IMG/VR virus record: IMGVR_UViG_3300005529_000030
Location: 8,597-72,596 of that record
From: a virus
Reading direction: 5' to 3' (one strand)
Length of the DNA: 64,000 nt
The notes beneath the pieces were generated by a model. The model was not told where the DNA came from and ran no database searches. It was given only the letters and a program-made list of their open reading frames with translations. Below are positions 7,526 through 17,176 of this stretch, piece by piece; position 1 is the first letter of the stretch, and each line of letters begins with the position of its first letter. The translations under genes and the position numbers were made by a program.

Positions 7526-9630
7526 CAGAACCGTTAAACGAGCACGCGCATAATGTATTAGAACAAAGAGTGATTACACCTGTAGCAGATATTACTTCTG
7601 CGGAAATACACAAAGATAAAGAAACAGGAACGTATCAGTTTTCAGATAGGGCCGCATTAAAATTGGTTCTAGATGATGCTTCTTTGGCTGATAATTATGC
7701 GAATATCAATCAGTGGGCATCGCAATGGGCGCAATCATTAATTCTCCTTCAGAGTCCGCAATCAGCGGCGGCTTTCGATGGAGTATTTATGAGTTCCGTT
7801 CCGAAGTTTACTCTATCGAATCATATAAGCAGTATTGTGCCTAAAATTATGGAGGGTTTGTTTTATGAAGACCCTCCTTTTTTACTTAGACCCAGACCAG
7901 GAACTAAACAGGAACTAGTAAGAGCTAAAACTGCCTTATTTTCCGCCCAATTGTGGGACATGAAGTTTGAGGAAGAGGTTGAGGCGGGTTTAGAGCAAAT
8001 GGCCCTATTCGGAACTTGCATATTTAAATGGGGATATTTAGAGCGAGATGACACTGTTAAAAAATACAGGAGAAAATCGGAAAAAGTTCCCCTTACTAGT
8101 GGTTTATTAAATGATTTAATTGATACTCCAGATAGTGACGATTATGAGATATTGACCGAGGTCGTTAAGATAAGTCGCCCATGGTTTAAATGTACTGACA
8201 TTCGTACAGTTTTGGTTGACCCCGGCTGTCGTGTTGGAGATATACGAAAGGCGAAGTGGGTAATTTATCGTGACTACGCCACATTTGATGATTTAAATGC
8301 TCTTAGAGAAGTTCCCGGCTACGACATCCCCGATGAAGAAGCTTTGAAATCATTCTTTCTATCGAATGAAATGTCGGGGCCGGATAATATTACCATGACA
8401 ATTCCAGAAGGCATGCGTGGATATTTACAGCAAGCCTTGCCTAGGAATTTCAGAACTTCTGCCGACCATTTACAGAACCCAATGGAAATTTTAGAGCGTT
8501 GGGATGCTGATAAAGTTATTGTCGTATTGTCATTCGGCGGAAAAAATATTCTTATCCGAAACGAGCCTAATCCTTACGGAAAAATTCCGTTTTATAGTGC
8601 AAATTGGCGTAATTTAGTTGATTCTTTTTACGGTCAGGGATTGGGACAATTAATAGGAGCCGAGCAAGTTGTAGAACAGGGTGTGACAAATCTTTCTCTT
8701 GATTTACTAGCTTATGGTTTGCAGCCAACGGCGGTTAGAAAGAAAGGGTTCAATGTTCCTACCCAAATGGTTAGATGGAAGCAGGGTGGAATTATTGACG
8801 TTGATGACGACGTAGATAAAGCATTTAAGTTCTTGCAAATGCCGAATGTCCCTGGTGAGGCTTGGGCATTTATTCAGCAAGCTCAGGGTACCGCTCAACA
8901 AACATCGGGCGCAAACGAACAGGTTATGATGGGCGCAGGCAGCGCAGGAATTAAAACAACAGGAATGCGTACTGCGACAGGAGCTTCGGCCATCATTCAG
9001 GCTAATGCGTCTAGATTGGATGGTCCTAGCGGTCGTTTTGTAAGACAAGTATTTGTTCCTTGGTTGTATCAGATGGATGAACTTAATAATGACCTTCTTC
9101 CTACGTCTGTTTTAAGAAGAGTTTTAGGCGAAGAGTTGGGCAATGAATACATGGTTGACCATGTAGAATTTAGAAACGCTAGATTTGAATATGAAGTTTT
9201 GGCTGGCGGTCATTTGGGGGCTAAAAAAGAAATGGCCCAATTTTTGCCGATTGTCGTTCAGCTTTTGAACAATCCTACATTTGTGAAAAACGTAAACGAT
9301 GCGGGTTATCAATTTAATGCGGCGGCAATCTTTAAGGCTTTTGCTGATGCGGCAGGATGGAAGTTTAGTCAGGACTTCTTAGAAAAGATGACGCCGGAGC
9401 AACAGCAGAAATATGAAGCAAATTCTCCTGCTGCTTTGCAAGTAGCACAAGCGCAGATAGCGCAACAATTACAGACTCAGAAATTTGAGCAAGAAAAAGA
9501 ACTAGAAGACCAACGTCAGCTTGGCAAGGCGGGAGCCGAAGTTCTTCGTCAAGCCACCGAACACAGTCTTCAAAGTGAAATAGGCAGAGAACCGCCGCCG
9601 GGGAGCTACGGTTTTGAAACAGCACTTTAA
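7522..9630 (+). CDS. Portal protein
   Basis: 702 aa after TerL; P22/N4-like portal features (NPYGKIPF, FYGQG, RTATGAS); Gln-rich C-terminal barrel. Confidence 0.85.
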   Translation: MTEPLNEHAHNVLEQRVITPVADITSAEIHKDKETGTYQFSDRAALKLVLDDASLADNYANINQWASQWAQSLILLQSPQSAAAFDGVFMSSVPKFTLSNHISSIVPKIMEGLFYEDPPFLLRPRPGTKQELVRAKTALFSAQLWDMKFEEEVEAGLEQMALFGTCIFKWGYLERDDTVKKYRRKSEKVPLTSGLLNDLIDTPDSDDYEILTEVVKISRPWFKCTDIRTVLVDPGCRVGDIRKAKWVIYRDYATFDDLNALREVPGYDIPDEEALKSFFLSNEMSGPDNITMTIPEGMRGYLQQALPRNFRTSADHLQNPMEILERWDADKVIVVLSFGGKNILIRNEPNPYGKIPFYSANWRNLVDSFYGQGLGQLIGAEQVVEQGVTNLSLDLLAYGLQPTAVRKKGFNVPTQMVRWKQGGIIDVDDDVDKAFKFLQMPNVPGEAWAFIQQAQGTAQQTSGANEQVMMGAGSAGIKTTGMRTATGASAIIQANASRLDGPSGRFVRQVFVPWLYQMDELNNDLLPTSVLRRVLGEELGNEYMVDHVEFRNARFEYEVLAGGHLGAKKEMAQFLPIVVQLLNNPTFVKNVNDAGYQFNAAAIFKAFADAAGWKFSQDFLEKMTPEQQQKYEANSPAALQVAQAQIAQQLQTQKFEQEKELEDQRQLGKAGAEVLRQATEHSLQSEIGREPPPGSYGFETAL

Positions 9631-9971: not shown

Positions 9972-11162
9972 ATGACAGAACAACTTGCTCTTGTCCCAGA
10001 GAATATAACTTGGGATATGGTGAACGCATGGGACGGAAAAACCATGCGAAAATATATGTCTATTCCTGAGTACAGAGACGCAATTACCAAAGTAGTTGCA
10101 TCTAGGTCGTATCAAGAAATTCAAGATTTGGCCGTTAAACAAGAGGAAACGGCATCAGAAGTGAATATTGAAAATTCGGATATTTCTACTAAAGATGCTT
10201 TGGCGGCTCCCGCAGCATTGGAAGATGCTGCTTCTAGTAAAACTACTACAGACTCAGCCCCAATTGCCGTGCCTGAACCTCCAAAAAAGATTATAGTGGA
10301 GTATCAGGTCAGAGATGAAGATGGAAATCCTATTGGTAGGCCCACGCACTTAGAAGCCTACACCGAAGAAGAAATGCGAAAAAAGATAATCGAGGCGCAT
10401 GTTCAGGCGACTCGCGCATTTCATCGTTTAAAGAAACAGAAAGTACAAAGCATTCAAGAAATATCTAAACAAGACGAACCGTCTTCTACTTCCCCTCGAA
10501 CTATGACTGACGAAGAGTTGATGGCCACGTTAAAAGATTTAAGGTCAGACGACCCTCAAATTCAATTGGCGGCCCATAAAAAGTTGATGCAATCTTATGA
10601 AGAAAAGGCCAAAGCAGAACGGGAAGCCAAGGAAGCCGAGCAGCGCGAATTTGAAAGGCAGAAGCAAGTAAGTATTGAGTTTTTGAAAAGACACAAACAC
10701 GATTTTAATAATTGTCAAGCCAACGTGGATTTAATAGGCGAGTATTTTAAGGAAAATAAACTTCCTTGGACGCTTGATAATTTGGAAGTAGCTTTTATAG
10801 CTCTTGAAGATAGGCTGGCACCTGTAGCGACGCCAGCGGTAGAGGTATTACCAGAGCCTAATCCGCCTGTTCCTCAACCAACAGCTACGACAACAGCGGC
10901 GGCGGTTGTGCAGCCGACACCGACTGTGCCTGTCGCTCCTCCGCAGCCAATTAATTCGGTTGCGGTTCCGAGACCAGGAGTCAATGGGGGTATTGTTCCG
11001 GGACAAACTTCAGCACCGCGCCCGTCGCAAAAACCTCAAGGACTAACGATGGAAGAAATCCTTTCTTGGGATGCTCAAACCATGCGAGCGAAAATGCGTT
11101 CGCCGCTACGTGCAGAAATAGAGCGCGTAACAATGGAAGCGCGACTAAGAAGAGGACGGTAA
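9972..11162 (+). CDS. Putative capsid scaffolding protein
   Basis: Coiled-coil and Pro-rich; directly upstream of the major capsid exon 1. Confidence 0.65.
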   Translation: MTEQLALVPENITWDMVNAWDGKTMRKYMSIPEYRDAITKVVASRSYQEIQDLAVKQEETASEVNIENSDISTKDALAAPAALEDAASSKTTTDSAPIAVPEPPKKIIVEYQVRDEDGNPIGRPTHLEAYTEEEMRKKIIEAHVQATRAFHRLKKQKVQSIQEISKQDEPSSTSPRTMTDEELMATLKDLRSDDPQIQLAAHKKLMQSYEEKAKAEREAKEAEQREFERQKQVSIEFLKRHKHDFNNCQANVDLIGEYFKENKLPWTLDNLEVAFIALEDRLAPVATPAVEVLPEPNPPVPQPTATTTAAAVVQPTPTVPVAPPQPINSVAVPRPGVNGGIVPGQTSAPRPSQKPQGLTMEEILSWDAQTMRAKMRSPLRAEIERVTMEARLRRGR

Positions 11163-11207
11163 TCCTAAGCGGCGCGTAACGCCGACTATAGCACGAGGGA
11201 ACTTCAC

Positions 11208-14200
11208 ATGGCTGGAGGCCCAAACCCGGCAATTGCTAATGTCGGGAATATATTAACGGCTCAAAGCATCCTCAAGTAAGGGGCTGTTTCGAGGGAAACA
11301 GAAATCTTCTCTGATTGACTTGGAACCTGAAATGGCGACAAGGCGGAAGCGCAAGCACCGTGAGAGACTAAGCGAGAAGACACCTAAAAGGTGATACGAT
11401 AGTCCGTTCTAATAGGAAAGAAAACTGTTAGGGAAAAACGCTTTGATAAGGAGCTAATCCCGAACTTATTTTTATAGAGTGAAATGCCGAAATTTGATAA
11501 TCTTACTGGAGTGAAATTCGGACGCCTGACGGTTATAAGCAGAGCACCAGACGCCGTTTCTAAATCTGGTTTCGTATATACAAGATGGAATTGTTTGTGC
11601 GATTGCGGAAAAGAGAAAACGATATATGCTGGTTCTTTAAAAAGAGGAGTAACCGTTTCTTGCGGTTGCCAACTTAAACAAGTTTGGCGACGAATAGGTC
11701 TTTCCAGTATCAAACACGGCGGCAGTTCAAAAGATGCGTCGGTAGATAAAAAAATACAATTTCAAATTTTACAACATATCCGTCAGCGAGCCAGAGCCAA
11801 CGGATATGAAACTGATTTAGAATTATCGGATATACCTGAAGTTCCTGATGTTTGTCCGGTTCTCGGAATTAAACTTAAAAAAGGAAAAGGTCCTCTATCT
11901 GATTTTTCTGTATCTATTGATAAAATCAATCCTAATTTACCGTATCTTAAAAAATACAAAAATAATTTGCGATTGATTTCATATAGAGCTAATCGTATTA
12001 AAAACGACGCTACTATTGATGAATTGGAAAAAATCATTCTATATATAAAAATGAGCCGCTCTGAAGAGAGCGAGAATCTTCTCTGATTGACTTGAAACCT
12101 GAAATGGCAACAAGGCGGAAACCGAAAAGGTGCCGTGAGAGACTAAGCGAGAAGACGCCGAAACGGCGATGCGATAGTCCGCTCTAACAAGAATAAAATT
12201 GTTAGTTAACAACAGGAAAGGGAGAAACGGATGCATTTGTTGTTGCCGCCGAGCGTCGTGTTCAACCGAATAACACTGGTATTAACCGCCAGTTTTTTCA
12301 GTACAATACGCTTGTAGGTGACACAACCCAAGCTGGTGATGGTGTTATCGGAGCACCAGAGTTCATTGGTCAGATTTCATCTCCGGCTCAACTGGGCGAA
12401 TGGAATAACTATACCAACTTTAGCGCGTTTGTTGTTGCGAGCGCACTAGATGATTTGGTTGGAAACAGCGCAGTTGAACTTGGGTAAAACTTGATGCCCA
12501 AGTAAAATCACGTTATATCAGATTAGGTCTTTTTCTAAAAAGATGAGTCTGAGACATTGTATATTGCCTTAAGGCAGAAGAGGAACTAGAAGTGCAAAGA
12601 AAATCTTGGCCGTATGTGGCCGGAATATTGGATGCCGAAGGAACTATTGTTATTGGCGAAACAAACGGTGGTTTTTATTCTAAAATAAAAATTTCCAACA
12701 CCAACAAAAAGTTAATGAAGTGGTTGGTTCAAAATTTTGGAAATGTTTTTTATAAAAACCTAAATTCAAGAAGTAATAGAAGTGTTTTATATGAATGGAA
12801 TTGTTTAGCCAATCAACAAGAGGCTTTTCTTTTAGGCGTTTTGCCGTTTTTATTGGTTAAGAAACCTCAAGCTTTGACTTTGCTTGAGTTCAGAAGAACC
12901 GAATCGTTGGAAGAAAAAAAGAAGTTGTGCGACAGAATAAAACAGCAGAATCAGCGTCTTATTGAGAATAAAACTTCTTTTATTAATTCTCATAACAAAG
13001 ACCGTTTTAAATATGCTGCCGGATATATGGATGGAGACGGTGGTTTTTATTTCGGAGATTCGAGCCATACAAGAATATATCTAACGAGCATAGATTTTAT
13101 AATTATAAAATGGTTTTTAGCTAATTTTGGCGGTAAATTCTATAAATACAATTCTTCTAATGAAAATCATTCTGACTACTTTAGGTGGGTTCTTAGCGGA
13201 CGGAAAAATAAAAAGTTGTTTTTGCTTGGAACTATCCCGTACATGATTTTGAAGAGGGAGCAAGCAAAAAATCTTTTACAAATTATAGATTCTAGTTCTG
13301 TTCAAACGACTAATACACGTGAGATTTCCTCGTCGGAAATCAAGAAAGAGTCTTAACTTATTGGTGACAATAAGAGCTTAATTTCTGTGAAGAAAATTAA
13401 CTAAAAACATTTAATCAGGCTGGCCAAAGCATCTCTCAGTTATACGCTGCCGTTGCAGACAGCGCAGCAACTGTAGATTCTCAGGTAAACCAAAGCAGCT
13501 TGTTAACCTCTCCATTTGTTTTGGATTTGGCTACGTTACGTGAATTGAAACAGCAGTTAGTTTCAAAGAACGTACTACCAAACCGAAATGGAAGGTTCGC
13601 AGGAGTTATTTCGCCTAACGTTTTGGGCGATATTTTCAACTCGACCACAGTGAACAACTCCATCAACTAAGGTGGACATTTAACGAAAGTTAAATTGAAT
13701 AAATCAGTTCTAATTGACTCGAACCCTGGGATGGGAACGAGGGCCAAGCGAGACGACGCAGGCTGAGAGAACAAACGAACTGACTCCCAATAGGGAGATG
13801 CAATGTTCCGTTCTTGTGAGAATCATTCTTTTGATTGGAGAAAAATTCGGTCGTTTACTAGTTATCAAAAAAGCGTTTTCCAAACATGGACGCTCTCGTT
13901 GGATTTGTCAGTGCGATTGTGGTAAAACTTATAACGTTTTAGGTCACAACCTTCGCAAGGGAAAAACTAAAAGTTGTGGATGCTTGCGAAAAGAGTCGGC
14001 ACGTAATTTAATCAGTTTCGCCAAGGAAAAAAACTTTTTAAGTCCTGGCGAAGCGGCCTTTAACGTTATGTATTATACGTACAAACAGCACGCAAATGAA
14101 CGAGGATTGGATTTTAGTTTGGAAAAAGATAGTTTTCGGCATTTAACACAAATGAATTGTTATTATTGCGGAGACGAGCCGAAGGATTTTTTCAAGCCTA

Positions 14201-14816
14201 AAGCTCCTAATGGCGGATACCTAAGTAACGGAATAGACCGAAAAGATAACGCGATGGGATATACAATTGAAAATTGTGTTCCATGTTGTCGAATCTGCAA
14301 TCAAATGAAAAGTAATAAATCATACGAAGATTTTATTACTCGTTGTTGGAAAATCACAAGAGGCCACAAGCCCTCTACTTTGGTAGAGTAACAACAAGCG
14401 TTGACCTGTGGAAATATGCAAATATGGATAAGTTCGATAAAATCGCTGGCGCAGACCAGAAGATGGACATCGAACTTCCCGGCACTTCTATCGTATTACG
14501 ACAGACGCCTTTCGTAACTACGACGCCTAATTATTCTGGAACGACAAGCACCGCATATCGTACCTATATCTTCGGACAGTACGCAATGATTGGTGTTTGG
14601 CAGAATGTACCAGGCGATACCGATTTGGGAGACGGAGATTGGCGCACTATTGACTGCAAGGTAGTTGAGAATGCACCAGCGTCTGCGTTTGACCCGGTTG
14701 GTACAATCGGAAGCTGGTGTTCTTATAGATTCCACCAGACGGTAACTCTACCGCCTGCTCGTGGGGCAAACACTCAGCGCCTTCGCTTCATAGATAGCGT
14801 ACCTGCTATTCAGTAG
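11208..14816 (+). CDS. Major capsid protein (N4 gp56-like), spliced from exons 11208-11272, 11441-11467, 12217-12485, 13414-13663 and 14399-14816; 342 aa
   Basis: Exons sum to 1029 nt in one open frame: MAGGPNPAIANVGNILTAQSIL/FDKELIPNL/KGETDAF...AVELG/YQAGQSIS...VISPNVLGDI...NNSI/VDLWKYA...DPVGTIGSWCSYRF...PAIQ*; GAGGG RBS; follows the scaffold gene. Confidence 0.88.
11273..11440 (+). ncRNA. Group I intron 1 of the capsid gene (168 nt, no ORF)
   Basis: P1 with U.G (CCU^C/GGGG), P2 CTGTTTC/GAAACAG, P3 TCTTCTC/GAGAAGA, P7 GAGACTA/TAGTCC, P9.0 GTT/AAC, terminal G11440. Confidence 0.88.
11468..12216 (+). ncRNA. Group I intron 2 of the capsid gene, with an HNH ORF 5' of the core
   Basis: P1 ACUU^/GAGU; core 12075-12186 nearly identical to intron 1; P7 GAGACTA/TAGTCC; terminal G12216. 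Confidence 0.88.
11484..12086 (+). CDS. Intron-encoded HNH-type homing endonuclease
   Basis: KFGRLTV..WNCLCDCG..SCGC N-terminal domain; CPVLG..SIDKINP..N.RLISYRANRIKN. Confidence 0.8.
   Translation: MPKFDNLTGVKFGRLTVISRAPDAVSKSGFVYTRWNCLCDCGKEKTIYAGSLKRGVTVSCGCQLKQVWRRIGLSSIKHGGSSKDASVDKKIQFQILQHIRQRARANGYETDLELSDIPEVPDVCPVLGIKLKKGKGPLSDFSVSIDKINPNLPYLKKYKNNLRLISYRANRIKNDATIDELEKIILYIKMSRSEESENLL
12486..13413 (+). ncRNA. Group I intron 3 of the capsid gene, with a LAGLIDADG ORF; terminal nucleotide is A
   Basis: IGS CUUGAUGCCC pairs 10/10 with ligated exons GGGU|AUCAGG; P3 TCACGT/ACGTGA; P7 ACGACTA/GAGTCT; P8 GATTTCC/GGAAATC; P9 with GTGA tetraloop. Confidence 0.85.
12592..13356 (+). CDS. 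Intron-encoded double-motif LAGLIDADG homing endonuclease
   Basis: YVAGILDAEG and YAAGYMDGDG motifs; two repeated halves. Confidence 0.9.
   Translation: MQRKSWPYVAGILDAEGTIVIGETNGGFYSKIKISNTNKKLMKWLVQNFGNVFYKNLNSRSNRSVLYEWNCLANQQEAFLLGVLPFLLVKKPQALTLLEFRRTESLEEKKKLCDRIKQQNQRLIENKTSFINSHNKDRFKYAAGYMDGDGGFYFGDSSHTRIYLTSIDFIIIKWFLANFGGKFYKYNSSNENHSDYFRWVLSGRKNKKLFLLGTIPYMILKREQAKNLLQIIDSSSVQTTNTREISSSEIKKES
13664..14398 (+). ncRNA. Group I intron 4 of the capsid gene, with an HNH ORF in P9
   Basis: P1 UCCAU^/GUGGA; P3 TCAGTTC/GAACTGA; P7 GAGAACA/TGTTCC; P8 CTCCC/GGGAG; terminal G14398. Confidence 0.85.
13798..14391 (+). CDS. Intron-encoded HNH homing endonuclease (start uncertain, 13798-13831)
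   Basis: KFGRLLV..WICQCDCG..SCGC; CYYCG..NGIDRKDN..GY..ENCVPCC..CN.MK. Confidence 0.85.
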   Translation: MQCSVLVRIILLIGEKFGRLLVIKKAFSKHGRSRWICQCDCGKTYNVLGHNLRKGKTKSCGCLRKESARNLISFAKEKNFLSPGEAAFNVMYYTYKQHANERGLDFSLEKDSFRHLTQMNCYYCGDEPKDFFKPKAPNGGYLSNGIDRKDNAMGYTIENCVPCCRICNQMKSNKSYEDFITRCWKITRGHKPSTLVE

Positions 14817-14842
14817 TAACTTCTTTTTTTTCAATAACTTAC

Positions 14843-14912
14843 AGACGAGTTAGTTACTCGTCTTAGTCGAGGGGCGCTCTTATGACGCGCTCCTCGGCGT
14901 TTTTCATAGGGA
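14843..14912 (+). promoter_or_regulatory. Twin hairpins after the capsid gene; second loop can pair with the RBS of the downstream endonuclease
   Basis: AGACGAGT/ACTCGTCT; GTCGAGGGGCGC/GCGCTCCTCGGC followed by GTTTTT; loop TCTTATGA is complementary to TCATAGGG (14904-14911). Confidence 0.55.
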
Positions 14913-14918
14913 ATAATA

Positions 14919-15377
14919 ATGCAATTACCCGATTCTCTTAGTTTAGCTGGGTTAAAGCCGGGAACCAAGGAATATGCTCGAATGACGGGTCGTAGATATT
15001 ACTATCGTCACCGTGACAAGGAAAAGGCCCGCACTAAAATTTGGCGATTGTCTAATCCCGATAAATATAAAAAATGGGTTGAGAAAAACAGAATTAAATT
15101 AATACAAGCGGCTCGGCGACATGACCATCAAGTTACCTCTGAATGGTTTGAATTAAAATTGAAACAACAAAACGGTCGGTGTGCCATTTGTAATAAAATT
15201 CCAAAAAGATTTGATATAGACCACAACCATTCCTGTTGTCAAGGAAGGAAAAGTTGTCATAAATGTAATCGTGGTTTGCTATGTCGAAGTTGTAATACTT
15301 TTATAGGGTTGGCAAAAGAATCTACAGATTTTCTTTTGTCCGCTATTAATTATCTACAACAGTATAATAAGGATTGA
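14919..15377 (+). CDS. Free-standing endonuclease VII-family HNH endonuclease
   Basis: QNGRCAIC...IDHNH...RGLLCRSCN..IG. Confidence 0.85.
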   Translation: MQLPDSLSLAGLKPGTKEYARMTGRRYYYRHRDKEKARTKIWRLSNPDKYKKWVEKNRIKLIQAARRHDHQVTSEWFELKLKQQNGRCAICNKIPKRFDIDHNHSCCQGRKSCHKCNRGLLCRSCNTFIGLAKESTDFLLSAINYLQQYNKD

Positions 15378-16594: not shown

Positions 16595-16626
16595 ATGGGG
16601 GCTGATTTACGTCAGCCCCATATTTC
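16595..16626 (+). terminator. Putative intrinsic terminator
   Basis: ATGGGGGCTGA-TTTACG-TCAGCCCCAT followed by ATTT. Confidence 0.45.
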
Positions 16627-16657
16627 ACAGATAAATTTTAAGTCGAGTTGGCTAAAA

Positions 16658-17176
16658 ATGGAAATTACGGATTTGGAAAAAAGAGTGGCTCTTTTAGAGC
16701 AGAAAGTAAAGAGCTATGAAAAAGATTCTCGTCGCGGTTTGGCAGGTCCTATTGGACCTCGCGGACCTCAGGGACCTCAGGGACCTCAAGGCGAGCGAGG
16801 AATCCAAGGAGATAAAGGCGACACAGGTCCGCAAGGTCCGCAAGGTCCGAAAGGTGACACAGGTCCGCAAGGTCCGAAAGGCGACACAGGTCCGCAAGGT
16901 CCGCAAGGTCCGAAAGGCGATAAAGGCGATAGAGGCGACATAGGTCCGCAAGGTCCGAAAGGCGACATAGGTCCACAAGGTCCGAAAGGCGATAAAGGCG
17001 ATAGAGGCGACATAGGTCCACAAGGTCCGAAAGGCGATAAGGGAGAACCAGGAAGGGACGGCAAAGACGGACTTTCGGGGCCGAGAGGGCCAGCGGGAAA
17101 CATTGAAGCCGCAGTTCAGGCGGCGATTGATGCCGTTATGAAACTTTTGAAAGAAAAAGGGTTGATAAATGGCTAA
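16658..17176 (+). CDS. Collagen-like fibre protein
   Basis: About 40 consecutive Gly-X-Y triplets ([12 protein letters not shown]). Confidence 0.85.
16755..17040 (+). repeat. Tandem 9-nt-unit repeats encoding collagen triplets
   Basis: GGACCTCAG, GGTCCGCAA and GGTCCGAAAGGCGAC repeats. Confidence 0.9.

Follow-up and report, generated by a model that had tools for sequence, protein, structure and literature searches.

The last nucleotide of a group I intron (omega) is treated as a near universal G, and annotation tools place 3' splice sites by it. A single natural exception could be traced in the literature, the group I intron at L1917 in Coxiella burnetii's gene for 23S rRNA: its terminal base is reportedly A, in work said to be that of Raghavan et al. 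in 2007, and its splicing is said to have been shown experimentally, going by the title of that paper. The accessible part of another source names this intron the IB2-L1917 LAGLIDADG sequence (PMC11019260). Here we describe the third intron of the major capsid gene of an uncultured soil phage. The stretch analysed (the window) comprises 64,000 nucleotides (nt) of an uncultured virus, positions 8,597 to 72,596 of IMG/VR record IMGVR_UViG_3300005529_000030, and all coordinates given below are those of the window unless a locus is named. The sole major capsid gene of this 72.6-kb record lies in pieces at 11208-14816 on the + strand. Its third intron (12486-13413) is very probably a mobile group I intron with the 3' splice site after A13413, belonging to a family in which a terminal A (omega-A) recurs and in which the 3' splice site would be positioned mainly by the P9.0 and P10 pairings. 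The novelty lies in this recurrence of omega-A across a phage intron family: it is not a second isolated case.

The window intron resembles the Coxiella intron in being a natural group I intron of the bacterial world that has no terminal G and carries an open reading frame (ORF) of LAGLIDADG type, putative in the window. However, the Coxiella intron stands alone, in one bacterium's rRNA gene, and its splicing is reported, whereas the window intron lies in a phage protein gene, is known here from sequence alone, and belongs to a family with omega-A in 12 of 43 mapped members at six sites. In the introns of the phage T4 td type, the endonuclease ORF is looped out of P6a and the terminal base is G. 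In common with these, the core is compact, the ORF occupies a peripheral loop that follows P6, the host is a phage protein gene, and homing is presumably by a DNA endonuclease; in contrast, the family of the window intron shows no visible P2 or P7.1/P7.2, and the ORF runs into the core. Variants of the Tetrahymena intron with omega-G or the G264-C311 pair changed were reportedly studied by Michel in 1989 and by Been and Perrotta in 1991, and the use of A is said to have gone with an A-U pair in P7. In the window family, the P7 pair stays G-C (30/30) with either G or A at omega, unlike in those variants.

The nearest described phage case, as far as the accessible part of its source goes, is the intron in the major capsid gene of mycobacteriophage LittleE (PMC3706429). 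This intron is about 0.8 kb long, a LAGLIDADG-type endonuclease gene is associated with it, and it sits in a highly expressed host gene. RT-PCR (reverse transcription followed by the polymerase chain reaction) and N-terminal sequencing confirmed that it is spliced. Because the capsid host gene is highly expressed, splicing must be efficient in such a position. The described arrangement is different (U before the 5' site, terminal G, endonuclease on the opposite strand), and no sequence relation between the LittleE intron and the window intron was found. Bacterial tRNA group I introns with C, not U, before the 5' splice site are described in the accessible part of Williams 2020 (bioRxiv 10.1101/2020.01.27.920355). 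Those introns are likewise a natural lineage departing from one "universal" splice-site nucleotide, found by exon-anchored mapping, but the departure is at the 5' splice site and not at omega; the scoring scheme in that part of the preprint still takes G at omega. A search of the literature on omega-A, terminal adenosine and LAGLIDADG capsid introns gave no description of the present family, subscription papers and supplements being outside its reach.

The features that define the splice sites are as follows.

12217-12485, + strand: capsid exon 3 (in the exon numbering used here), ending ...GAA CTT GGG T; the final 8 nt (12478-12485) provide the 5' strand of P1
12486-13413, + strand: capsid intron 3, the omega-A intron, 928 nt, group I
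12490-12503, + strand: internal guide sequence, 12490-12495 for P10 and 12496-12503 for P1
13355-13356, + strand: bases of the joining segment J7/9 that form P9.0, paired with 13411-13412
13411-13413, + strand: UU of P9.0 and the terminal A13413 (omega), in the same alignment column as the omega-G of relatives
13414-13663, + strand: capsid exon 4, starting ATCAGGCT; its first 6 nt (AUCAGG) are the P10 target

Seventy-five loci encoding relatives of exon 3 (73 viral contigs and 2 genome contigs) were fetched, and the exon peptides of the window were placed on them. The exon 3/exon 4 boundary is spanned by 73 loci; L064 and L075 stop short of it. In all 73, the exon 3 and exon 4 matches are contiguous with exactly one codon between them, and the junction reads EL[G/A/S]-Y-Q-[A/S]-[G/S]-Q without gaps, Y and Q being invariant. 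This site is free of introns in all 73. Joining T12485 to A13414 (GGGT|ATCAGG) gives ELG-Y-QAGQ, which matches all of these homologues and agrees with the initial annotation, made from the letters of the window, that the junction restores LGYQAG. This peptide can be restored in two ways only, T12485|A13414 or A12486|T13415: the product is identical, and both introns end in A. No G is found within 13393-13417, and 3' sites farther upstream are precluded by the in-frame TAA at 13398-13400. Splicing after the nearest Gs (G13418 and G13419) would remove the invariant Y and Q. Since the junction is conserved in 73/73 homologues, the exons must join GGGT|ATCAGG, which makes A13413 the terminal base of the intron.

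The pairings at the splice sites point to the same position. In P1, GCCCAAGU (12496-12503) pairs with ACUUGGGU (12478-12485) over 8 base pairs (bp), with U12485.G12496 at the splice site. In P10, CUUGAU (12490-12495) pairs with AUCAGG (13414-13419) over 6 bp. In other words, the guide 12490-12503 forms 14 contiguous pairs on the ligated exons (8 in P1 and 6 in P10), among them the 10 of 10 pairs with GGGU|AUCAGG noted initially; when the first 90 bases of the intron were shuffled 5000 times, at least 14 pairs with U.G at the site came up once. At the rival 3' sites, P10 is reduced to 1 bp after G13418 and 0 bp after G13419. Furthermore, A13355-A13356 in J7/9, just after P7, pair with U13411-U13412 immediately 5' of A13413. 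This is the 2-bp P9.0 (AA/UU) that had been noted initially as lying directly before the terminal A. The predicted RNA of the spliced junction is ...CUUGGGU|AUCAGGCU... The 3' splice site after A13413, as first proposed, is therefore upheld by the 73 homologues, by P1 with P10, and by P9.0.

The identity of 12486-13413 as a group I intron, likewise proposed initially, is borne out by the core helices, covariation, the U.G in P1 and the G-C pair of P7. The predicted core and the ORF within it consist of the following elements.

12508-12513, + strand: 5' strand of P3, UCACGU, pairing with 13317-13322 (ACGUGA)
12518-12552, + strand: P4 (12518-12524/12546-12552) enclosing P5 (12527-12533/12538-12544), from the minimum-free-energy fold
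12565-12576, + strand: P6 hairpin, UGCC UUAA GGCA, from the fold
12592-13356, + strand: predicted endonuclease ORF, 254 amino acids, GTG start, double-motif LAGLIDADG type
13306-13312, + strand: 5' strand of P7, A-(C bulge)-GACUA; G13308 belongs to the guanosine-binding pair
13317-13322, + strand: 3' strand of P3, ACGUGA
13323-13341, + strand: P8 hairpin, GAUUUCC/GGAAAUC, from the fold
13348-13353, + strand: 3' strand of P7, GAGUCU; C13352 pairs with G13308, and the strand aligns to AUAGUCu of RF00028
13357-13374, + strand: P9 hairpin with GUGA tetraloop; 99.5% of cells paired, compensatory changes in 4 of 7 pairs
13378-13400, + strand: P9.1 hairpin; 98% of cells paired, compensatory changes in 5 of 5 pairs

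P3 is complementary in every member read by eye, the hexamers being quite different (CUUGAC/GUCAAG, UUAAGC/GCUUAA and others). P7 is formed by A13306 and G13308-A13312 with G13348-U13353, C13307 being bulged. The guanosine-binding pair G13308-C13352 is present, and this pair is G-C in every one of the 30 aligned relatives; the distal pair is the mismatch A13312.G13348 in the window, and in the relatives it is G-C in 5 and a mismatch in 25. The description of P7 in the initial annotation, a retained G-C pair with a distal A.G mismatch, is thus correct. The 5' half of the intron folds as P1, P4-P5 and P6 (z -2.96), and on 29 aligned 5' halves P4-P5 covary, with compensatory changes in 8 of the 11 predicted pairs.

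For the 3' core, 30 of the 42 usable mapped relatives were aligned; L085, L098, L114, L120, L125, L131, L136, L152, L157, L158, L161 and L181 were left out because of long P9.x insertions, near-identity or strong divergence. On these 30 relatives, the named structure (P7, P9.0, P9 and P9.1) was paired in 92.3% of cells, in comparison with 26-43% when the partners were slid by 1-3 columns. Double-sided changes were found in 114 cells (30.7 in shuffles), and the covariation score was reached by none of 500 shuffles. The last base, A13413, departs from the terminal G of group I introns, and the other defining features are present. On these predicted helices, 12486-13413 is a group I intron, filed with a variant omega.

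The base at 13413 was checked in assemblies. The stretch (at least half of the sampled words) is present in 11 DNA runs of 5 studies. Contigs of four runs from four studies were compared over 11100-14900; one of these runs is possibly the source of the window itself. X1, X2 and X3, from three studies, each have one whole-stretch contig with 0 differences over 11100-14900 and A at 13413. The contigs of X8 are small and all identical; its record 7 covers 13162-13458 and also has A at 13413. This means that the base is A in the assemblies of four runs, and G in none. The word depths in the four runs were 419, 71, 32 and 2-7. No joints were found in the contigs of these runs, so no intron-less allele was seen there. 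The runs with the identical 3.8-kb contigs are labelled soil (2017), mine (2024) and soil (2020).

The survey of homologous introns for omega-A suggested in the initial annotation was carried out. A degenerate P7-P8-P7'-P9 pattern gave at least 119 stretches in viral contigs; pattern matches, earlier loci and the window together comprise at least 97 distinct 3' cores. Among the matches listed, 46 cores lie in capsid homologues for which another locus provides an uninterrupted reference across the insertion site. Junctions were called by a U.G at the 5' site within a P1 of at least 5 bp, followed by the in-frame junction best fitting up to three references; for introns with no U.G candidate, the best protein fit was used. 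This rule yields 43 calls. Calling by protein fit only was dropped because it was too noisy with distant references (margins of 1-4 units). L110, L131_1 and L174 had references yet fell out of the mapping, L131_1 and L174 as unmapped and L110 as ambiguous. The call for L182 is wrong (P1 shorter than 5 bp); the candidate best by protein there has A before the 5' site and omega-G.

Omega is A in 12 of the 43 mapped introns, distributed over six insertion sites: codon Y121 (window), W93, N94|N95, G|I, V and H|P. These are the introns of the window, L068, L072, L098, L101, L113, L116, L120, L124, L125_2, L133 and L158, and all twelve have U.G at the 5' site. Mapped introns with U.G (33) comprise 21 with omega-G and 12 with omega-A; those with no U.G (10) include 9 with omega-G. 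The junction is the top protein candidate, with references 72-86% identical, for the window, L068, L072 and L133. Omega-A had been called a rarity. This is so insofar as the Coxiella intron is the sole other natural case traced, but not within the family of the window intron, where the omega-G rule seems to be relaxed, about a quarter of the mapped relatives having A.

A full 2-bp P9.0 is present in 12/12 omega-A introns, made up of five dinucleotide pairs (AA/UU, GA/UC, AC/GU, GU/AC and AU/AU). P10 measures 3-8 bp in all twelve, whereas of 336 displaced sites 6.8% form at least 3 bp. In nine of the twelve, no G occurs among the last 14 bases of the intron; in L101, L116 and L120 the first 9 exon bases have none either. 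Omega-A and omega-G occupy mostly one alignment column, at a fixed distance from the conserved CCUAAACACA tail; offset omega-G rows are L084, L107 and L148. P7 is identical between omega-A and omega-G introns, and inspection of the alignment by eye revealed no core position in J6/7, J8/7 or P7 that tracks omega.

In a quick tree of the ribozyme cores, from which the last three intron bases and the guide were excluded, omega needs 8 state changes, at least 2 of which are required by well-supported branches. Five different orthologous introns at the H|P site, with compensatory changes in P8, P9 and P9.1, all have A. This suggests long retention rather than recent damage. The initial annotation held it conceivable that exon ligation could be slow here and rate-limit the capsid mRNA. 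From the recurrence of omega-A and its retention in diverged, covarying ribozymes, we argue that it would be well tolerated.

Several points weigh against these readings. In model introns, exon ligation is known to be strongly impaired when omega-G is replaced by A. No RNA runs containing the stretch were found among the runs listed, so that splicing, its accuracy and its rate are all deduced. Rfam did not call the intron in the whole window at the gathering threshold; at E<=10 it gave no intron model in region 11000-15000 (4 kb), and the 5' half of the intron alone had no RF00028 match. The 3' half alone gave a 5'-truncated RF00028 match of 21.8 bits (E 6.7e-4 in the 151-nt search), and the ORF-less relative in L157 (2406-2614 of that locus) scored 55 bits, the gathering score being 50; the 765-nt ORF insertion probably defeats the model on the window intron. 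P9.0 is paired in just 71% of cells of the MAFFT alignment. The full P9.0 in 12/12 omega-A introns compares with 15/21 in omega-G introns with U.G (Fisher p = 0.065), and many omega-G rows in this comparison come from one orthologous lineage. The other 8 of the 12 omega-A introns have references only 27-61% identical, and in these the chosen junction lies 0-5 BLOSUM units below the protein-only optimum (L113 -5.0, L101 -4.3, L125_2 -4.0); the H|P and V sites are nevertheless fixed by a local match to an uninterrupted relative (...SFAGVIHPFALGDV... in L181). L110 can be read as omega-A or as omega-G. Finally, resolution of the omega tree is poor, with 22 of its 38 inner branches open and a long branch leading to the window.

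Given where the splice sites fall in relation to the conserved protein, together with the pairings, the distribution in the family and the confirmed base, we infer a self-splicing intron that would use free guanosine and in which P9.0 and P10 would play a compensating role. The first step would be ordinary, with free guanosine as the nucleophile, since the P7 G-C pair is intact and the U12485.G12496 site is canonical. In the second step, the phosphate after A13413 would reach the active site with no base-specific docking of omega-G. The scissile phosphate might be held mainly by the flanking helices: on its upstream side the 2-bp P9.0, and on its downstream side the 6-bp P10, which continues P1 without a gap along one guide. 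Specific reading of the terminal base would then matter less. Among the relatives, omega switches between G and A while P7 stays the same. P9.0 and P10 are considered to supply the positioning because both are constant in every omega-A member; the contrast in P9.0 between omega-A and omega-G members is only suggestive.

A further step is possible but rather doubtful. The guanosine pocket of this clade of phage introns might be blind to omega, so that P9.0 and P10 alone fix the 3' site and G and A drift with P7 unchanged, or A might be favoured for blocking side reactions of omega-G. These may be 3'-site hydrolysis, intron circularisation and reversal in a very highly expressed capsid mRNA.

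Other explanations of the terminal A have to be considered. That A13413 is an assembly or sequencing error for G has a negligible probability: nothing was found in its favour, the compared contigs, including assemblies of different studies and years, show 0 differences, and a terminal A recurs in 11 other, different introns. It is also hardly credible that the intron ends at G, with G13419 giving ELG-S-GQ or G13418 giving ELG-AGQ and the capsid being two residues shorter. Although G13418 and G13419 are the nearest Gs and G13419 is in frame with the 5' site unchanged, Y and Q are invariant and the 73 homologues show no length variation at the junction. In addition, P10 would have 1 or 0 bp instead of 6, and P9.0 and the conserved tail spacing put omega at 13413. 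L101, L116 and L120 have no G from -14 to +9, so a non-G end is unavoidable in the family. The end at G13419 had been named in the initial annotation as the alternative to exclude; it drops two invariant residues and forms no P10, and the assignment to A13413 survives.

A recent defective insertion, or a disabling G-to-A mutation, would imply a misexpressed capsid and a dead phage. The site is intron-free in all 73 related loci that span it, and the endonuclease has no close relative in the viral contigs, as would be expected of such an event. However, the identical sequence is found in contigs of four runs from four studies, and 11 runs of 5 studies have the stretch. The record has no other capsid gene, the endonuclease has an intact ORF, and the five diverged orthologous H|P introns, with compensatory changes in their helices, have kept omega-A; a defect of this kind is very improbable. 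A protein helper is unlikely rather than far-fetched: the product of the LAGLIDADG ORF acting as a maturase, or a phage or host factor, might stabilize the 3' site, with the RNA alone being a poor ligator. Organelles are known to have LAGLIDADG maturases, the part of the catalytic core between P7 and P7' is shared with the ORF, and all twelve omega-A introns are 612-1030 nt long and hence ORF-bearing, whereas three ORF-less mapped relatives end in G (L085, 262 nt; L157, 254 nt; L182, 230 nt). Most omega-G relatives also bear ORFs of the same kind, however, so that the association comes down to these three ORF-less cases. A helper would also be compatible with positioning by P9.0 and P10, the explanation preferred here.

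If the mapping is right, a phage capsid-intron family uses A at omega in about a quarter of its mapped members, at several sites and after several independent switches, with the G-binding pair always intact in the omega-A members. An essential, highly expressed phage gene would then tolerate omega-A, and pipelines that demand omega-G would misplace the exon junctions of such introns. Matched natural omega-A and omega-G ribozymes, for example L116 and L166, or L068 and L066/L070, could serve for the study of substrate selection in the second step. If omega is unread or A is favoured, the family would represent a lineage in nature in which the nucleotide most conserved in the group I class has been relaxed, with ready G/A pairs at hand.

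Some members of the family vary at the 5' site. At the TGGAA|C site (L066, L070, L111 and L112) and the TGGA|A site (L071, L080, L122 and L182), U.G is seemingly missing: the last exon base A pairs with a guide U, the conserved W-N-N-Y sets the position of the junction, and the terminal base is G. In L157 and L181, the U at the 5' site is paired with A. L084, L110 and L139 carry orthologous introns after ...NQY. For these, the U.G rule gives omega G in L139, A in L110 and G in L084; with A before the 5' site, omega would be G in L139, G in L110 and C in L084, and P1 with P10 would be a perfect 19 bp in all three. By tail spacing, L084 would end in C.

Blastn of the 3' core of a relative against GenBank phages gave no match. 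In bacterial genomes, the core pattern matched 120 stretches, most of which have no P9 helix by eye and are chance matches of the loose pattern. The real-looking bacterial introns end in G by eye; they were not formally mapped and stand outside the omega count. They include 23S rRNA introns of candidate-phyla bacteria, with the 3' exon CCTAAAAGGTATCGGAGG... (L217, L264, L293 and L296), and an intron that interrupts a conserved gene in Bacillus, Sporosarcina and Neobacillus isolates (L214, L236, L263 and L300); one copy lies in a capsid gene.

The endonuclease ORF lies downstream of P6, in a loop closed by GAAC (12583-12586) and GUUC (13300-13303). Two motif-like stretches are seen in its translation, ..GILDAEG.. 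and ..GYMDGDG.., and in relatives the two halves of the protein align with each other. Pfam LAGLIDADG_3 scored 21.6 bits against a cut-off of 22.5, and phrog_5046, labelled "HNH endonuclease" by its authors, matches in two stretches (E 8e-31). A search of the viral contigs found no close relative. The protein is 38-43% identical to ORFs in introns at another capsid-gene site (L066 and L068-L072), the 3' cores of which are similar. It should be mentioned that the 3' end of the ORF runs through P7, P3', P8 and P7', and that its stop codon TAA (13354-13356) is J7/9, including both As of P9.0. This overlap (13306-13356) would set translation of the ORF against core folding, both needing the same RNA.

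The capsid gene, as read by us against the protein of L002, has about 344 codons in 5 exons and 4 introns. Its remaining parts are listed here.

11208-11272, + strand: capsid exon 1, read against the L002 protein
11273-11440, + strand: capsid intron 1, 168 nt, no ORF, read against the L002 protein
11441-11467, + strand: capsid mini-exon, 27 nt; 11442-11468 translates to FDKELIPNL
11468-12216, + strand: capsid intron 2, with an HNH-type ORF at 11484-12086
13664-14398, + strand: capsid intron 4, with an HNH-type ORF at 13714-14391
14399-14816, + strand: capsid exon 5

In introns 1, 2 and 4, U precedes the 5' site and G is terminal. An intron-less homologue of the gene matches phrog_1357, "major head protein". 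Against GenBank phages, neither megablast of the capsid gene region nor tblastn of exon 4 gave a match, and tblastn of exon 3 gave a single distant match to the major head protein of Tunturiibacter phage Tunturi_3 (32.5%). The frame of exon 3 reaches a stop right at the 5' splice site of intron 3 (GGG|TAA, 12482-12488), so that unspliced RNA would yield a truncated capsid fragment.

The ORFs of introns 2 and 4 are paralogous, with a common N-terminal motif (...KFGRL.VI...C.CDCG...), and both match the endonuclease families phrog_374, phrog_1035 and phrog_3322. Downstream of the capsid gene, an ORF of 193 amino acids (16595-17176) is largely built of collagen-like G-X-Y repeats. Another intron family, very compact (about 165-175 nt), is represented at 11273-11440 and 12050-12216. 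It was detected by no Rfam model; blastn found 55 copies in 38 of the 75 loci (L001-L075), at many capsid-gene sites. Its consensus fold has P2, a long-range P3 around small P4-P5-P6 helices, P8 and P9, with compensatory changes in 21 of 38 pairs. The P7 motif (G/C)GACUAA...AUAGUC is common to this compact family and the LAGLIDADG intron family.

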